Source: Fidelibacterota bacterium
GTDB taxonomy: Bacteria > Fidelibacterota > Marinisomatia > Marinisomatales > UBA1611
Assembly: GCA_016784605.1 (NCBI GenBank)
Contig: JADHUI010000005.1
Coordinates: forward strand, 6,410 to 70,409
Direction of reading: 5' to 3'
DNA: 64,000 nt
A program made the position numbers and the translations under genes. Below are positions 55,295 through 63,948 of this stretch, one piece after another. Numbering within the stretch: position 1 is the stretch's first letter; the number at the start of each line of letters is the position of its first letter. The notes under the pieces were generated by a model, which made no database searches, was not told the origin of the DNA, and was given only the letters and a program-made list of their open reading frames with translations.

Positions 55295-56659
55295 TTAATT
55301 AACTTTAGAAAAATACCGACGCGTTTCCGCCATCACCTTGGGGGAAAGTAAAATAGCAGACGTCATGGTAGGAATAGCCATTAATGCAAACATACCATCA
55401 ATGAGATTAATGGCAATATCAATGGATATAATAGATGCTAAAACAATCGTGCCAACATAAAAATAATTGTAAATGGGTTTTGCCTGTGTCCCAAACAAAT
55501 AACTGGTGCATTTTCGTCCATAATAAGAATAACCAAACATAGTCGATAAACTAAAACTTAATACCGCAATTACTAAAATGATTTCCCCCAAAATACCCAA
55601 CTCATGCTTAAAAGCCATGACGGTTAAAGTAACACCATTATCTCCATGGAAATCTACTCCAGATGCTAAAATCACAAACGCAGTAATGGAACACACAACA
55701 ATGGTATCAATAAAGGGTCCCATCATGGCCACTAATCCTTCTCGCACAGGTTCTTTGGTTCTTGCGGCGCCGTGGGCCATAACTTCCGTTCCAATTCCTG
55801 CTTCATTCGAAAATGCAGCTCGTTTTATTCCCACAATAATGATAGACCCCAAAGCACCACCCAAAACGGCATCACCCGTAAAAGCATCCTGAAATATAGA
55901 TGCAAATATTCCCGGAATATCTGATATATGATTCATAAGAATTATCATGGCTGCAAATAAATAAATTAAAACCATTAAGGGGACCATTCTCGAAGCAACT
56001 TTACCAATTCGTTTAATTCCGCCAAAAATAACCAACGAAACAATACTTGCTGCAACGAGTCCTGTTACGGCATCTCCCACCATTGGATTGGATGTAAATA
56101 GGTGATTTGGTTGATAAAATAAATCACGTACAATTTGTGCGAGTTGATTGGCTTGGAATAAAACGAGACATCCAATCAATCCTGCCACACTAAATAAAAT
56201 AGCTAAGGGACGGAAGGCTTTTCCCAACCCTTCTTCAATCACATACATTGGGCCACCTTGCACTTCTCCCGCATCATCTTTCCCGCGATACATAATACTG
56301 AGTGTACAGGTAAAATATTTTGTTGCCATTCCAATGATGGCACTGACCCACATCCAAAATAAGGCACCAGGACCGCCTGTATGAATGGCTAAAGCTACTC
56401 CACCAATATTTCCCATTCCCACCGTACTGGCTAATGCAGAAGATAATGCTTCAAAATGTGAAATTTGTCCGGGATCTTTTTCATCATCATACTTTCCCCG
56501 TAAAATTTGAATCGCATGGGGGAAATGTCTAAAGGGGATAAATCGACTATAAATTGTAAAAAAGAATCCGCCACCCACTAATAGAATTATGAGAGGTGTT
56601 CCCCACATCATTCCTGAAAAGGCGGACATCACTTGGTCTAATGTATGAATAAGTCCCAT
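55295..56659 (-). CDS. Sodium:alanine/glycine symporter (AGCS/AlsT family)
   Basis: VGMGNIGGVA, GGPGALFWMW, GGPMY, GGIKRIG, RAAFSNEAG, FIDTIVVC. Confidence 0.92.
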   Translation of the reverse strand: MGLIHTLDQVMSAFSGMMWGTPLIILLVGGGFFFTIYSRFIPFRHFPHAIQILRGKYDDEKDPGQISHFEALSSALASTVGMGNIGGVALAIHTGGPGALFWMWVSAIIGMATKYFTCTLSIMYRGKDDAGEVQGGPMYVIEEGLGKAFRPLAILFSVAGLIGCLVLFQANQLAQIVRDLFYQPNHLFTSNPMVGDAVTGLVAASIVSLVIFGGIKRIGKVASRMVPLMVLIYLFAAMIILMNHISDIPGIFASIFQDAFTGDAVLGGALGSIIIVGIKRAAFSNEAGIGTEVMAHGAARTKEPVREGLVAMMGPFIDTIVVCSITAFVILASGVDFHGDNGVTLTVMAFKHELGILGEIILVIAVLSFSLSTMFGYSYYGRKCTSYLFGTQAKPIYNYFYVGTIVLASIISIDIAINLIDGMFALMAIPTMTSAILLSPKVMAETRRYFSKVN

Positions 56660-57055
56660 TTGAGTATTTTTTTAATGTTTTGTTTATGATTATTAAAGAG
56701 AATCGTTGTGTATTTTAATGAAAGAATAGGAATATGCCTAACTTGATTAATTTATCAGCCACGAAGATTCCCCGTAGAAATGGCGATTTATTTATATCAT
56801 ACCTGACATTCCATGCTTTGATTTATTTTCCATTTAAGTGGATTCCGGATCGTTATTCAAACTTCCGGAATGACAACGATTCGTTAAGTCATCCCGAATG
56901 CCATAGGCAGAGGGATCTATTTGAGTAATGCGCGATTTCTCTATTAGCTTTATATCAGATTTGGATGGGAATGAATTGAGATTTTTCGCTGGTTTTATCA
57001 TATCCTAGATTTTCAAAAACGGGTTTTTCACTCAGAATGACTTAATGAAAAAAGT

Positions 57056-57604
57056 GGCATCCCGAGAGACAAAGTCTGAGGGATCTATTTGAGTAATGCG
57101 CGTTTTTACCAGTGGCCCAATATTGGGTTTGAATGGAAAAGAACCGGATAAAGAGAAATGAGTAATCTATTTATGTGAAGAAAAAGTTTTTCACTATTAT
57201 CTATTAATATATTGCTAATTTTAAAAATGGAAAAAACATTTTTTGTATATATAGTAGCGAGTTTGTCCAGAAGACTTTACACAGGAGTTACTTCAGATTT
57301 ACAAGGAAGAATGTGGCAACATAAAAATAAAACGATGAATGGTTTCACAAAGAAATACAATATAAATAGATTGGTATGGTTTGTAGAAACGGACGATTGG
57401 CATGCCGCCATCGAAGAAGAAAAAAGAATCAAAGGTTGGAGAAGAGAAAAGAAAATTCAACTACTTGAAAAGACAAATATATCTTGGCAGGATCTATCTG
57501 AACAATGGGTTGAATGAAAGATCTTTACAGGTGGGTAAAGTAGATTCTTCTCTCGGCCTACCTATTGCAAGATTATAAAATCCCGGTTTTTCACTCAGAA
57601 TGAC
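57056..57604 (+). mobile_element. Putative autonomous unit: left arm + GIY-YIG gene + right arm
   Basis: Nuclease ORF enclosed by the same two arms that delimit the gene-less units; mobility itself is inferred, not shown. Confidence 0.45.
57227..57517 (+). CDS. Stand-alone small GIY-YIG nuclease (96 aa)
   Basis: FFVYIV...LYTGVT (GIY/YIG strands), R..QH, GFTKKY, AI..EKRIKGWRREKK, N..W.DL; ATG at 57227. Confidence 0.9.
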   Translation: MEKTFFVYIVASLSRRLYTGVTSDLQGRMWQHKNKTMNGFTKKYNINRLVWFVETDDWHAAIEEEKRIKGWRREKKIQLLEKTNISWQDLSEQWVE

Positions 57605-58419
57605 AACAAAGGCAAAAGTCATCCCGAATGCCATAGGCAGAGGGATCTATTTGAGTAATGCGCGTTTTTACCAGTGGCCCTATATTGGGTTTGGTGGAAA
57701 AGAGTCAGATATATAGAATGTGAGATTCTTCGCTGGTTTTATCATATCTTAGATTTTCAAATACGGGTTTTTCACTCAGAATGACAACGATTCGTTAAGT
57801 CATCCCGAATGGCATAGGCAGAGGGATCTATTTGAGTAATGCGCGATTTCTCTATTAGCTTTATATCAGATTTGGATGGGAATGAATTGAGATTCTTCGC
57901 TGGTTTTATCATATCCTAGATTTTCAAAAACGGGTTTTTCACTCAGAATGACAACGATTCGTTAAGTCATCCCGAATGCCATAGGCAGAGGGATCTATTT
58001 GAGTGATGCGCGATTTCTCTATTAGCTTTATATCAGATTTGGATGGAAATGAATTGAGATTCTTCGCTCGGATTATCTAACGAAAGATTGTTAAATCTCG
58101 GTTTTACACTCAGAATGACTTAATAAAATAAGTGTCATCGCGAGGTGCTTTCTCTGTGATGATCTGCTTAATTCTTAGGGCAAATTCTTGATATAAAAAC
58201 AGACTGTCCCGTCATCTGACGGGATTTACAACCCCACTCATACTTCGCTCGCAATGACGGTTTATTTATATCATTCCTGACATTCCATGCTTTGATTTAA
58301 CATCAATATTTGAGGATTCGGTATTTGTTTTACCATGTCGAAGATTAATCGTCATTTTTTAATCTCACATGTTTTGATAAATGATTCGTTCAGATTTGCT
58401 TATTTTCTAAACATATTTT

Positions 58420-59511
58420 ATGAAACAATTTGATCAATACCTGCTTCGGCAATTTTTTGCAATTTTCCTCATGGCTCTATTGGGTTTTGTGAGCATTTTT
58501 ATTATTGTCGATCTTATCGAAAATCTCGATCGATTTATCGATAACCACGTTCCTTGGAAAATGGTTGGTTTATACTATGTTTACTCATTTCCTTGGTTTG
58601 TAAGTATTGCATTACCCATGTCCGTTCTCATTGGAACCGTCTTTAGCGTGGGAGGATTTGTTAAGCGGAATGAATGGACAGCTATGAAAGCTGCAGGCGT
58701 TTCTTTATATCGATTAGCATTACCGTTATTTTTAGTCGGATGTTTTATCGGCGGAGGATCCTTTATTTTGGATAATGAATGGGTATCTTGGGGGAATGAA
58801 AAACGTTTCGAAATCGACCGTGATTATGTCAAAAGACGCTCTCGCCATAAATTAAAAAATGTCCTTAATAATATTTTCCTTCAAAAGAATTCTCATTCAC
58901 ATATATCCATCGGGAAATATCGAATAAAAAAAGAAATTGGAACGGATATAGCAATCGTCCAATTGGATGACAAATCTATTTTACAGAGAGTGGATGCAAA
59001 AAAGATTACATGGAATCCCGATTCTTCATTATGGATTTTAAAGGATTATTCCATTCGCTCTTTTTTAAAAAACGGTCAAGAGTCCCAAGTTGTCATTTCG
59101 AAAGAAGATACATTAATAGAATTAGGTTTTTCACCTGAAGACATTAAAAAACAAGCACGTTCACCTGAGGAGTTAAACTATTTTGAACTCACAAGTCGCA
59201 TTGCGCAATTAAGAGAAAATGGTGTTGATACATTGAGATGGGAAGTGATTCGTTATATGAAAATATCCTTTTCATTTACAAGTCTCATTTTAATTCTTTT
59301 TGGAATTCCGCTCGTAGTCTATAAAGAAAATAATAGTTTATCCTTTGGAGCCGGGATGAGTGTTTTTGTAATATTTAGTTATTATGCCTTTATAAAGTTT
59401 GGGCAATCACTGGGATTTAATGGTATTCTAGAACCCTTAATGTCAGCATGGTTAGGGAATATTCTCTTCTTTACCGGTGGAGCCTATTTATTGGTTTCAG
59501 CAAAAAAGTAA
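58420..59511 (+). CDS. LPS export ABC transporter permease, LptF/LptG family
   Basis: FDQYLLRQF, LPMSVLIG, RNEWTAMKAAGVS, 3+3 TM layout, SAWLGN. Confidence 0.88.
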   Translation: MKQFDQYLLRQFFAIFLMALLGFVSIFIIVDLIENLDRFIDNHVPWKMVGLYYVYSFPWFVSIALPMSVLIGTVFSVGGFVKRNEWTAMKAAGVSLYRLALPLFLVGCFIGGGSFILDNEWVSWGNEKRFEIDRDYVKRRSRHKLKNVLNNIFLQKNSHSHISIGKYRIKKEIGTDIAIVQLDDKSILQRVDAKKITWNPDSSLWILKDYSIRSFLKNGQESQVVISKEDTLIELGFSPEDIKKQARSPEELNYFELTSRIAQLRENGVDTLRWEVIRYMKISFSFTSLILILFGIPLVVYKENNSLSFGAGMSVFVIFSYYAFIKFGQSLGFNGILEPLMSAWLGNILFFTGGAYLLVSAKK

Positions 59512-59524
59512 AGGTTTAATCAAA

Positions 59525-60916
59525 TTACTTTTTCCGCTTTTTTGAGCGTCTTTTTTCACCAGGCTTGAGTGGTTTTCGCGATTTTGGACTCGTAATAGTC
59601 AGTCCCATAGAAAAATTAAAACCACGCATTGAACTAATCCAAACGCCATTACGAAAAGCAAAACCTAAGTCAAAAATAATGGGTCCTTTATGTACGCCAA
59701 AGCCCATAGATAATTCACTTAAATCTCCTCCAGCCCAACTATACCCAAATCGAACAGGAACATTATCTAATTTTGTCCATTCTGCTCCAAAAGATATACG
59801 CCATTTTGCGCGAGAATAATATTCATTAATAAAACCAGTGACTAAATCACTGGCAAATACGAATGTGTCAGTTCTTTTAGATAATCCCATTCGAAATGTG
59901 GCTGGATAACGTGTTTCAAACACACGACCTTCTCCGGCTCCTGTCGTGTCTAAAATAATTTCAGAATTATTATAGAATAAGGAATCTTGAGATAATTTGT
60001 CTGCACGAATGGTATCAATGGTATAAGTAAATAAGACTGCTTCATTCGGGCCTAATTCTTCCCCTTCCCATGTTAACGGATAAATACCTGGAATCGTAAA
60101 ACCTGGACCTTCATCGTTTACGCTATTTGTTTTATTCCAGACAATCGTTCCCATGGCATTAATCATGGATGAACCAAAGGTCCAACCTTGGAATTCTTTT
60201 GTAACAATTCCGAGATCGAGCCCAAAACCAGCTCCACCCATTCCTTGTCGAAGAAGATATCGGCCGGAACCATACAAACCTTTATCATCCGTTACAAGAT
60301 TTGCATAACTATTTTCAGGATCGATTCCCATATAAAACAATCCTTGCAGATATTTAAGGGTAATACCCGTTGAGAAATTATTAAAAGGAACCGCAAAGGT
60401 TAAACCATATTCGTTTAAGCCTAAAATTTCATAACCCAAAGTCATGTCTAATTCTGGTTTATTCGCATTCCCATACATCATCATTTCTAATAATCCGATG
60501 GGTAATTTATAATTAGCCAAAAAGATAGCATTACTGGTAAAAGCCAGATTCCCTGACGTAAAGTTCAGCATGGGGATGGGCAAATGAACATCCTGGAAGA
60601 AGGTTAATCCGCCCGCATCTTCATAATTTTCAAATAATTTATCTTTATCTGCAGTGTATAATGTATCACCGCTGTATTCGGCGATTGTTTCAAATGAAAT
60701 AAAATTCCCAATAACGCCAGTGTCAAACCCAAATAATTGCCATTGAAAAGGTTTATATTGCTGAAATCCAATTAAAGCAGGATTGTACCCTACCGAAAAA
60801 ATACCATCGGCTATAGTTGTGTATGTTCCTGCTAAACCTACAACGCGAGCATCCCGTTTGGTTTGGGCAAAAGCACAAGTGGCAATTATAAAAACGGTAA
60901 GAAGGCATTTTTTCAT
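59525..60916 (-). CDS. Putative outer-membrane beta-barrel protein (FadL/PorV/DUF5723-like)
   Basis: Signal peptide, ARVVGLAG...YNPAL N-terminal motif, GITLKYLQG, GFGLDLG, alternating beta-strand pattern. Confidence 0.6.
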   Translation of the reverse strand: MKKCLLTVFIIATCAFAQTKRDARVVGLAGTYTTIADGIFSVGYNPALIGFQQYKPFQWQLFGFDTGVIGNFISFETIAEYSGDTLYTADKDKLFENYEDAGGLTFFQDVHLPIPMLNFTSGNLAFTSNAIFLANYKLPIGLLEMMMYGNANKPELDMTLGYEILGLNEYGLTFAVPFNNFSTGITLKYLQGLFYMGIDPENSYANLVTDDKGLYGSGRYLLRQGMGGAGFGLDLGIVTKEFQGWTFGSSMINAMGTIVWNKTNSVNDEGPGFTIPGIYPLTWEGEELGPNEAVLFTYTIDTIRADKLSQDSLFYNNSEIILDTTGAGEGRVFETRYPATFRMGLSKRTDTFVFASDLVTGFINEYYSRAKWRISFGAEWTKLDNVPVRFGYSWAGGDLSELSMGFGVHKGPIIFDLGFAFRNGVWISSMRGFNFSMGLTITSPKSRKPLKPGEKRRSKKRKK

Positions 60917-63900
60917 TATCGCATTCCCCCGTTTCCGTATTGACTCATAATCGTATTATTCCCACTCATTCTACCCGCACTTGGGCGAATATGGATATAA
61001 TATCCATTCATATCACGAATCGTGCCATCGCCTTTGGATAAACGCAATCGAATTTTATCGTGAGTAGTTGGTAATCCGCTTGTTTCACTCAATGTCCATG
61101 AATAGGCATTTGTATTTTCAATTCCTTGAACGATGGGTGTCCAAAATTCACCATTATTTAATTCAGGATTTTCGGCTGTAGAATAATCAATATTGACAGA
61201 TGTGATATCTCCATACGTATTCCAAAGAATTTCATACGATTGATCTGAGTAAAGAGTATCGCCCCCATTTGGCCATGTTAACACTAATTCATCTTGAGCA
61301 TCATTCATGAGACCCGTATTGCTTAGTCGAAACGTTATAAATGAATTAATATCCAAATAATCAAGCGTTGTCATAAAAACGGATTGGCTATCTGTACCAT
61401 TTAGATGAAATCGTGGCGCTACATAATGATCGCCATATCCCGTTAATAGGAATATCCGATTCGAGTCCAAGGTGCTGTTAAACGTGCCTGTCCCCGCTTC
61501 ATGCACCATTCCCGGTGGGAAGCCAGATGAATCACCTTCTTCATAATAACTTACGGGATCCGGTAAAATAAATTTCCATAATGTATCCACATAAGCAATC
61601 ACAGAATCTGTTCCCGAAATGGATCGTCGCACAAGATATGGCATTCCGTCGATACACTCTGAAAAGTCAGTCATAACATTAAAAATATGAATATCAGATG
61701 TATCTGGGTCCAATTCAAGACATGTATCGACAATATAAATACTATCTGTCGGATCCCATCCTTGTTGAGAAACTAACGAATCACGAAGGACGGATAGCAT
61801 TTCACTTGATCGATCAGATGGAAACAGGGTCAAATTGGACATGAGGATGGATAACTCTGCTCCAAAAGGTAAAGCATTTGTTACATTTGATGTTAATTCA
61901 GCTTGAATCAGGGAACTGCGAATTCTATTTCGTGTTTCATGATCAAATTCTTCAATGGGCGTTTCCACAGCAGAAATAAATGTCATAGGTGCCATCATCA
62001 CTTCAAACGGTGCTTCTAGACGAAAACCTCCGCCAATGGCTTTTCCAATTTCAATCGTACCTCGACCATCAACACGTGATTCGGATTCCACAATTAGATT
62101 CACTGGATTCACCGACAATAGTTCGATTATATTGGCACAATTTTCATCGGATAATACTTGGTTTGACCACGAGGGTGCACTGTCTGATTTTGAATTATAT
62201 ATTTCGGTTAATGTACCATATTTATTCAGCTCAATGACGGTCATGGCTGTATCAACATCATTGATAGGATAACCGATCGAATCCACATTAACGCATAATG
62301 TTGTGGTATCGCCAAATGTATCAATCCCAATCATATCGATGCCCAATTTTACCGGTAATTTGATTTGGCTATACATAATAAATTGAATCCGTACGTCTGT
62401 CATCATCATTCCACTGAATCCTTGAGGCATATTATCCATGTTTTGTGTGACAGAAGGGAAACCCATATAAACATACGCTTCTAACGATTCAAACTCCATG
62501 GAATACATACGAACACCTAAACCAAGTCCACCGAGAGAAGAACCATCCAATGGAATGGAAGCAATTTGTTCCGGAATAGATACGTCTAAAGCTAATTCCA
62601 TATTATTAATCGGCTCATCGGGGTATTGGGTACTCTGGAATGAATATCCTTTTAAATCAAAATCTCGATCAAACACGTTCCCTTTGGATAAAACAGTTTC
62701 AATAATAACCGAATCACCTCCAGCGGGTGGAGCAAAATTTTGGAAATTCATTTTAAAATTGATATCGAATGGAAATGTACTCGCCAAATTTGAAATAACT
62801 AAACGATTCGCAGTATTATCCACGCCTTCCGTTTTAAGCATCGCTTGAAAAATAGATAAACTTGTTTCAGAACCTTCTTCATCCCCTTCTGAAGCAGCAA
62901 AACCCATATCTGGCTTTGGAATATCAAGAATCGTTTCTGTAATACTCACATCAGCACTGTCAAGAGATGGAATATTCATATTTAATACCAGATTAACCGC
63001 CATAGAATCATTCGCATAAATCGTCACAGATTCACCTGATGCCACATCGGCCGAATCCAACTTAAACCCTAAATTTATTTTTAATAATTGCCTAAGTCTC
63101 GCACTCGCCAATGATGTGGTGTCAGCATAAGTAATATTGGTTCCAATTGTTGGTATCGTTTCATGATGAGCCAATGAATCGGTGATTTCATATTTACCGG
63201 TATAAAGTCCTGCGGTGGATTGAATCAAATTTTTGGATATTCCTTGATTTCCGATGGATGTAATAAATTGACTTGCATCGCTATTGGCGACAACTAATGC
63301 TTCAATTCCGTCAATAATTTGCGGATCGCTTGTTAAATCAATATCGCTAAATCCTAAATCTAGTTCAATTAATACAGACCCTAAAATAGAATCAACCGTA
63401 GAATTAAATATGCCTACCATCGTATTCCAATTTTCTGCTGAAATTTCCCTATCTTCTGCAGGTGGCATATAAAATGTAGCCGCCTCCCAAGTAAGTGGAT
63501 TACTTTCATCGTAGGTCGTATCCACATAAGGAATTCCATAAAGGACAACCGGAAGGCTCATATTAATGGGAGTAGATGGAATAGCAAAATCCCCTAAATC
63601 AACACCGGGGATTTCTGTCGGCGCGATTTCTGTATCCAAATATCCACCCGGAAATTGAACCTGTAAATTATCTTCGCCAATGGATTGAGATGGCAGATCG
63701 CCTTCAAATACGAGTTGCATTCCCAAACCATCGTCCGAGGGAAAGATATTTACACTATCAACGATGCCATCAAGAGAATATCTTTGTTGGACTAATGGAA
63801 TCTTGAGATCGATGAACCATGTGGGCATTTCAAACTTCTCTGATGTTTCAAAATCACACCCACTCAAGAGAAGTAAGCTTAATGCTCCGCTTAAATAAAG

Positions 63901-63948
63901 GACACCGAAATGTTTCCTTCGAAATGATCGTCTCGGATTATGTTTCAT
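60916..63948 (-). CDS. Large acidic beta-rich hypothetical lipoprotein
   Basis: Lipobox LSGC, P.W...L.IPL N-terminal motif, C-terminal Ig-like PNGG...I.W...IDYS...Y.W. Confidence 0.65.
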   Translation of the reverse strand: MKHNPRRSFRRKHFGVLYLSGALSLLLLSGCDFETSEKFEMPTWFIDLKIPLVQQRYSLDGIVDSVNIFPSDDGLGMQLVFEGDLPSQSIGEDNLQVQFPGGYLDTEIAPTEIPGVDLGDFAIPSTPINMSLPVVLYGIPYVDTTYDESNPLTWEAATFYMPPAEDREISAENWNTMVGIFNSTVDSILGSVLIELDLGFSDIDLTSDPQIIDGIEALVVANSDASQFITSIGNQGISKNLIQSTAGLYTGKYEITDSLAHHETIPTIGTNITYADTTSLASARLRQLLKINLGFKLDSADVASGESVTIYANDSMAVNLVLNMNIPSLDSADVSITETILDIPKPDMGFAASEGDEEGSETSLSIFQAMLKTEGVDNTANRLVISNLASTFPFDINFKMNFQNFAPPAGGDSVIIETVLSKGNVFDRDFDLKGYSFQSTQYPDEPINNMELALDVSIPEQIASIPLDGSSLGGLGLGVRMYSMEFESLEAYVYMGFPSVTQNMDNMPQGFSGMMMTDVRIQFIMYSQIKLPVKLGIDMIGIDTFGDTTTLCVNVDSIGYPINDVDTAMTVIELNKYGTLTEIYNSKSDSAPSWSNQVLSDENCANIIELLSVNPVNLIVESESRVDGRGTIEIGKAIGGGFRLEAPFEVMMAPMTFISAVETPIEEFDHETRNRIRSSLIQAELTSNVTNALPFGAELSILMSNLTLFPSDRSSEMLSVLRDSLVSQQGWDPTDSIYIVDTCLELDPDTSDIHIFNVMTDFSECIDGMPYLVRRSISGTDSVIAYVDTLWKFILPDPVSYYEEGDSSGFPPGMVHEAGTGTFNSTLDSNRIFLLTGYGDHYVAPRFHLNGTDSQSVFMTTLDYLDINSFITFRLSNTGLMNDAQDELVLTWPNGGDTLYSDQSYEILWNTYGDITSVNIDYSTAENPELNNGEFWTPIVQGIENTNAYSWTLSETSGLPTTHDKIRLRLSKGDGTIRDMNGYYIHIRPSAGRMSGNNTIMSQYGNGGMR

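Follow-up and report, generated by a model that had tools for sequence, protein, structure and literature searches.

The window, by which we mean the whole 64-kb stretch of DNA analysed here, contains a block of palindromic repeat arms around one small GIY-YIG nuclease gene, located between the divergent host genes alsT and lptF/G. The question raised by this locus is what the nuclease does to the repeats, and whether it spreads them. The first-pass annotation had taken the block for an undescribed system. It is not one, since the enzyme family, its association with repeats and the analogy with REP/RAYT/BIME elements are already published by Chenal et al. (2025, PMC11893778; this article and PMC3733652 are cited from the parts available). 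The Ssn family (CDD cd10448) consists of single-domain GIY-YIG proteins of about 94 aa, which bind GTC-tagged hairpins (NTS/SRM) as ssDNA only and cut upstream of them. The biochemistry covers four family members. SsnA is inactive on dsDNA and plasmids and neither binds nor cuts RNA, and removal or extension of the hairpin loop is tolerated (PMC11893778). From the 20-nt product and the NTS75 oligonucleotide of that study, we derived a cut position 5 nt 5' of the G of GTC. A relation to IS and REP/RAYT/BIME elements and a mobile origin are given there as hypothesis, and our literature search, with subscription journals outside its coverage, found no paper testing Ssn-driven mobility.

The features of the locus are listed below in window coordinates.

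55295..56659, minus strand: alsT, sodium:alanine symporter (PF01235), host flank outside the element
56767..56786, minus strand: decayed arm left of the block, recognised from sequence and retained in the short allele (the X8 contig reaches 56786)
56779..56825, no strand: left-hand copy of the direct repeat that bounds the block (linker and degenerate C-left arm), 44/47 identical to 58253-58299; crossover window 56787-56800, from the X8 joint
56795..56874, no strand: C unit of the NTS/dRS3-like GTCATTCC...GGAATCC type, left arm degenerate, right arm intact and folding at -8.2 kcal/mol
56888..57041, no strand: A unit 1, from the arm search; left arm GTCATCCCGA-12nt-GAGGGATCT, then spacer and long-loop right arm
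57056..57604, no strand: A unit 2, arm - ssn - arm, recognised from sequence; left tag mutated (GGC for GTC)
57227..57517, plus strand: ssn, encoding a 96-aa nuclease of the Ssn (SsnA-like) family with a single GIY-YIG domain (PF01541, homology, AF2 fold)
57618..57785, no strand: A unit 3, from the arm search
57799..57952, no strand: A unit 4, near-identical to A unit 1 in sequence
57966..58119, no strand: A unit 5, from the arm search
58134..58258, no strand: B unit of the GTCATYGCGA type (arms 58134+/58258-), with a 16-nt perfect palindrome inside at 58208-58223
58253..58324, no strand: right-hand copy of the direct repeat that bounds the block, plus a resident partial C unit (58270); congener G002 has an orthologous C unit at this site; crossover window 58261-58274
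58420..59511, plus strand: LptF/LptG permease (PF03739), host flank outside the element

The five units of left arm, spacer and right arm reported earlier were all recovered, with left arms (+) at 56888, 57056, 57618, 57799 and 57966 and right arms (-) at 57041, 57604, 57785, 57952 and 58119. Their start-to-start spacings are 168, 562, 181 and 167 nt, the ssn gene filling the second unit, so that the gene-less spacings of 168, 181 and 167 nt are confirmed. All 12 motif matches of the window fall inside the block. Beyond the five A units, the array comprises the B unit, the C unit (arms 56795+, degenerate, and 56874-), the partial C unit, the decayed arm and the bounding direct repeat, and the three arm subtypes A, B and C alternate within it. 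Cutting and binding by Ssn depend on the G of the GTC tag and on the C that follows the stem; 12/12 called arms, which flank ssn on both sides, keep the two bases. Pieces of the block were recovered in contigs of three runs (in run X1 the ssn piece has a depth of 23 vs ~20 in the flanks); since none of these contigs crosses the entire array, the unit order rests on the assembly. Promoter and terminator scans of the block gave no signal above shuffles.

Some smaller observations concern the same region. The tag is changed to GGC at 57056, upstream of ssn, and to ATC at both terminal C-left arms (56795 and 58270). The positions altered in these three arms are necessary for Ssn cutting (PMC11893778), and the arms may be cut-resistant ends. 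The palindrome CCCGTCA..TGACGGG, perfect or near-perfect, lies inside B units, both at 58208-58223 in the window and at C23, C25 and C11:70772 of the window genome (G000), and similar small CCCG...CGGG inserts fill arm loops in many relatives. On the minus strand at 60916-63948, the window also encodes a predicted lipoprotein-like ORF of 1010 aa with no Pfam match, which adjoins a DUF5723 protein.

The ORF at 57227-57517 (+) starts with ATG and encodes 96 aa; a TTG start at 57212 would give 101 aa. Its product matches PF01541 (E 1.7e-13) as its sole Pfam domain and, being below 150 aa, has the size of a single-domain protein. The single GIY-YIG gene with its motif residues, as first described, was thus recovered (Y8, Y18, G20, R28, H32 and E65), and Y8, Y18 and E65 align with the catalytic Y6, Y17 and E64 of SsnA. 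The protein shares 46% identity with the N. gonorrhoeae ssnA orthologue (E 6e-25), which has NTS repeats on its flanks, and 46% with the homologue of Azospirillum lipoferum 4B, a member of the genome list used to define SRM (PMC11893778). In the reverse search, the N. gonorrhoeae orthologue found the ssn ORF as its single match in the genome (E 5e-19, 85/90 aa). With this NTS-flanked orthologue substituting for the N. meningitidis protein, the 96-aa protein falls within the limits set by Chenal et al. for the family (E < 1e-10, > 75% of SsnA length). Its AlphaFold2 model (pLDDT 91.8) has the GIY-YIG fold, with UPF0213 BH0048 as top fold match and Slx1 as the next; no Ssn structure was among the fold matches, and the NCBIfam search gave no specific model. 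The same protein used as query against the genome (2.17 Mb, 89% complete) returned itself alone.

On these sequence grounds, the ORF is assigned to the Ssn family, whose members are site-specific ssDNA nucleases. By family homology, the protein is predicted to cut its own A-type arms, and we consider this probable. Such cleavage is an extrapolation, since the window holds no SRM match and A-type arms are not among the substrates assayed in the available parts of PMC11893778. The first-pass annotation had proposed the protein as the cognate hairpin-recognising nickase of the repeats. As a hairpin nuclease this is very likely right, given the four family members characterised (PMC11893778) and the gene-arm association described below. 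It is not expected to nick cruciforms in duplex DNA, because SsnA acts on ssDNA alone (PMC11893778).

The A-type arm follows the consensus GTCATYCYGA-loop-GARGRATCY, with loops or inserts of 12-44 nt and a 5-bp stem. This stem is real, as judged by compensatory changes and not by the energy model: the two variable pairs of the stem are both of Watson-Crick type in 206/214 distinct A-type arms, and the base before GTC is T in 167/214. In the DNA minimum-energy structure, the left arms form the outer stem, at -4 to -6 kcal/mol, and from that of the long right arms the outer stem is absent. The hairpin character of the inverted arm pairs described earlier is supported by covariation. Transcripts of the units might also be structured RNAs that partner the nuclease, as had been suggested, or guide it; the conserved unit length and the repeated structure could speak for this. 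But SsnA neither binds nor cuts RNA (PMC11893778), the Rfam scan of the block gave nothing at E <= 5, RNA folding of the unit was no better than that of shuffles (z +1.72 and -0.34), and G-T mismatches among stem variants were not in excess over C-A (2 vs 6). A role for such RNAs is very improbable.

By sequence, the window repeats classify as CGTC-type palindromes in their tag and first A-T pair, though not in the size of stem and loop. They share with the CGTC-tagged REPs (families 1-4; dRS3, RPE-4, RPE-6; Di Nocera et al. 2013, PMC3733652) the unpaired TGTC/CGTC tag, the A-T first stem pair, the short tail, the inverted dimers and the clusters. They differ in that the A arms have 5-bp stems with G.A mismatches and long loops, whereas CGTC REPs have stems of 8-9 bp and loops of 4-5 nt. 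The latter "apparently lack a dedicated transposase", and the available parts of PMC3733652 name no dedicated enzyme for them.

Compared with the Ssn/SsnA loci of PMC11893778, the window has the same ~95-aa single-domain GIY-YIG protein with the catalytic Tyr, Tyr and Glu kept, the same arm-gene-arm layout with GTC-tagged hairpins ending in ATC-Y on both sides of the gene, and the same scattering of arms in intergenic clusters. It is unlike them in its GTCATYCYGA...GARGRATCY arms with 12-44-nt loops, which lie outside SRM, in its three alternating subtypes, and in its host, which judging by the names of homologues is likely a marine Marinisomatota/Fidelibacterota member and not a symbiont. It also offers filled and empty alleles, whereas the available parts of that article give mobility as hypothesis only. 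The published SRM pattern has 0 exact matches in the block, and its 2 matches in the rest of the genome do not resemble arms. Since SRM was found near only 71% of Ssn homologues (PMC11893778), its lack here points to a variant arm and does not exclude the protein from the family. The present subtype escapes the published pattern, and Figures 2c, 3e and 5a of Chenal et al. may already show some arm variants.

The arms are not confined to the nuclease locus. With three arm patterns, 53 arms in 17 clusters were found in the 2.17-Mb genome (89% complete); 52/53 lie outside long ORFs, although long ORFs cover 92% of the genome. As 41/53 arms belong to 16 further clusters without an Ssn gene, the array cannot be called the gene's own. 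A second array at the end of contig C23 (G000:C23:64584-65749, L001) has 13 arms, made up of A, B and C units as in the window, and no nuclease, and lies behind a pilB / sigma54-regulator / pilC-like operon, gene names being read from translations. At the site of this array, G002 carries arms and run X8 appears to have a shorter version. Between outward-facing tags, linker length varies from 5 to 58 nt and is 13 nt in 9/52 cases, 4 of which come from the window locus. Joining of units at cut sites, by which a linker would equal twice the cut distance, was considered and rejected in view of the 5-58-nt range and because entire linkers travel with arms in both arrays. Small GIY-YIG genes of another kind stand directly behind tRNA-Ser and tRNA-Ala genes (L120, G000:C9:16786-16995, and L123, G000:C8:3-101), each near a partial duplicate of tRNA sequence, an association unlike that of Ssn.

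Comparison with relatives supported an association between gene and arms. TGTCAT occurs within 300 nt of 81/96 homologue loci vs 8/79 distal windows, and a called arm (broader arm caller) within 500 nt of 130/181 Ssn loci vs 7/54 distal windows, the distal controls being mostly coding DNA and not matched intergenic DNA. The published SRM pattern flanks 16/181 of these loci vs 0/54 distal windows. The 181 loci represent distinct proteins, 8/189 having been dropped as identical, with a bias towards relatives of the window protein. In a comparison of 201 genomes from the phylum, where kin are not independent, the A-type pattern is present in 54/71 ssn-positive vs 48/130 ssn-negative genomes, and at least 10 copies in 23 ssn-positive vs 8 ssn-negative genomes; the reversed pattern has 0 occurrences in all 201. 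Among five of the eight arm-rich ssn-negative genomes searched with PF01541, other small GIY-YIG genes were present in 5/5.

Arm subtype also follows the protein tree, as the proposed co-phylogeny of nuclease and repeat would require. On a quick ML tree of 97 columns, with arm-type labels that are regex classes defined for this analysis, arm type changes 10 times vs at least 33 in 100 shuffles. The tree has 176 rows (181 minus 5 with short profile cover), and 58/176 without a typed arm were omitted from the count, leaving 118 typed rows (YGA 78, GCGA 22, CC 18) whose groups mix host phyla. Within the genus, G001 combines a GCGA-clade protein with GCGA arms, and G000, G002 and G003 are YGA. Residues 70-72 and the 13-15 loop differ most between arm groups, with W71 in 76/76 YGA proteins and G in 19/21 GCGA proteins. 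A specificity code in these residues is offered as hypothesis only, since the arm groups are largely clades.

The alsT-lptG site is variable, and an empty version of it in relatives, as had been anticipated, does exist. In G003, G005 and G008, the intergenic region measures 65-88 nt and no arms are seen; in G001 it measures 245 nt with one decayed GCGA arm, and in G002 it runs into a contig break, with a C arm at the end. A strain more than 99% identical (11 differences in 1,927 flanking nt) provides a short allele: an 11.9-kb contig of run X8 joins 56786 to 58261 and is without 56787-58260 (1,474 nt), with 14-nt identity at the joint across the B/C linker and the tag of the bounding repeats. 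Run X8 has no ssn depth and a depth of 116 in the flanks; the short allele is known from one contig of one run. For the B right arm, cleavage is predicted at 58263/58264, a position within the 14-nt crossover window. A single crossover between the bounding repeats would give the short allele, in either direction: a cassette may have entered at an arm already in place, or it may have been excised. Host recombination between the same repeats would yield the same short allele. A further contig joint, 56035-58504, has a 32-nt side. The joints 57102-57671 (X1) and 56937-57671 (X7) were also considered as excisions and were rejected, as the second array on contig C23 accounts for both.

The gene itself changes place. 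In four congeners, ssn is located at differing sites; those of G002 and G003 correspond to gaps of 13-52 nt in the window genome, and at the counterpart of the G001 site there is an arm cluster but no gene. Together with this, the empty allele in a near-identical strain suggests likely movement of ssn from one repeat-marked site to another. In G002, the insertion junctions are ~22 nt away from the first tag, with no target duplication and ~42 nt replaced; they are therefore off the predicted cut and bear no precise cut-and-paste signature. Some other recombinase or transposase (IS110/Piv-like or HUH) could move the units, with Ssn as passenger or regulator. Such junctions would fit it, as would the many arms in the eight ssn-negative genomes and dRS3 being the target of a phage recombinase (noted in PMC11893778). 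Set against this, no match to PF01797 (IS200/Y1, HUH) or PF02371 (IS110) was found in the 89%-complete genome, the available parts of PMC3733652 link no transposase to CGTC repeats, and arm subtype tracks the Ssn tree. We regard this alternative as improbable, and less likely than action by Ssn.

The main rival is that Ssn acts as a domesticated ssDNA restriction enzyme, cutting incoming DNA at arms and lowering recombination at arm-flanked loci, the arrays changing by host recombination and slippage with the gene passive. Restriction of transforming DNA by Ssn was observed in vivo in N. meningitidis (PMC11893778); the present genome contains comEC and dprA, besides the pilB/pilC-like operon adjoining the second array, and has one ssn vs 53 arms, 52 of them intergenic. 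On the other side, ssn has a patchy, multi-copy distribution across the phylum, with 0 to 9 matches per genome and 71/201 genomes positive; its site differs in each of the four congeners, and it is absent from the allele of the >99% identical strain. Owing to this patchiness, the shifting sites and the empty allele, ssn resembles a mobile gene more than a fixed host function. As a full account, passive restriction is rather unlikely, although restriction and movement by Ssn can both hold.

The explanation that we favour, with a little over even confidence as a whole, is an Ssn gene within an array of GTC-tagged arms, in which ssDNA cuts at arms likely promote arm-to-arm recombination, unit duplication and gene movement. 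The enzyme would bind arms as ssDNA hairpins and cut ~5 nt 5' of the tag, when these become single-stranded in the lagging strand or in incoming transforming DNA. Cut ends would then recombine with other arms, and in this way units would duplicate, arrays become mosaic and the gene shift from one arm-marked site to another. For the step in which Ssn cutting drives these rearrangements, we see about equal chances of its being right or wrong. The filled and empty alleles are compatible with a nuclease that spreads its elements. Against this explanation, RecA-type deletion between the 47-nt direct repeats explains the short allele without Ssn, and the eight ssn-negative genomes with at least 10 arms, the junctions off the cut, the variable linkers and the right-arm folding also count against it.

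The arrangement recalls REPIN/RAYT elements (GTAG REPs, HUH transposase) and BIMEs, with one enzyme gene for many non-autonomous inverted arm pairs, mosaic tandem arrays and recognition of ssDNA hairpins. It is unlike REPIN/RAYT in that the enzyme is a hydrolytic GIY-YIG nuclease, for which strand-transfer activity is not known, the tag is GTC instead of GTAG, and the 89%-complete genome has no Y1 transposase (PF01797). How CGTC/dRS3/SRM repeats spread is the wider matter, for which the available parts of PMC3733652 name no transposase and those of PMC11893778 only hypothesise a mobile origin. Tentatively, and with the odds somewhat against it, Ssn proteins might be the enzymes, missing so far, that mobilise CGTC-type repeats. 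Cassettes of arm-ssn-arm layout would home into existing arms via ssDNA cuts without transposase chemistry, and residues 70-72 together with the 13-15 loop would read the specificity groups (YGA, GCGA, CC and a deeper GTCWY-CCTGAG). Under the same tentative reading, the split of the family into specificity groups would place most specificities outside the published motif. With a filled/empty pair in >99% identical strains and a 14-nt crossover window, the question of spread becomes directly testable. To what is available of PMC11893778, the analysis adds an arm subtype missed by SRM, an agreement of arm type with the protein tree that extends across phyla, and signs of mobility. Ssn groups with arm types beyond the published pattern are candidate new ssDNA-cutting specificities for molecular tools.

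Several loci of the wider collection deserve mention. A deep clade of 24 UPF0213-like small GIY-YIG proteins (L232-L253, L094, L096) is accompanied by a fourth arm type, GTCAC/GTCTY-CCTGAGC...TCGAAGG, with the tag in 19/24 loci, and L250 by yet another repeat type; hairpin association may extend beyond cd10448. In family f23 (10 Ssn homologues, L206, L208, L203 and kin), the arms are decayed and the GTC tag is absent throughout, so this is possibly a domesticated or immobilised lineage. The Ssn loci L019, L060, L031 and L013 carry short tandem duplications of arm ends with a period of 19-56 nt.
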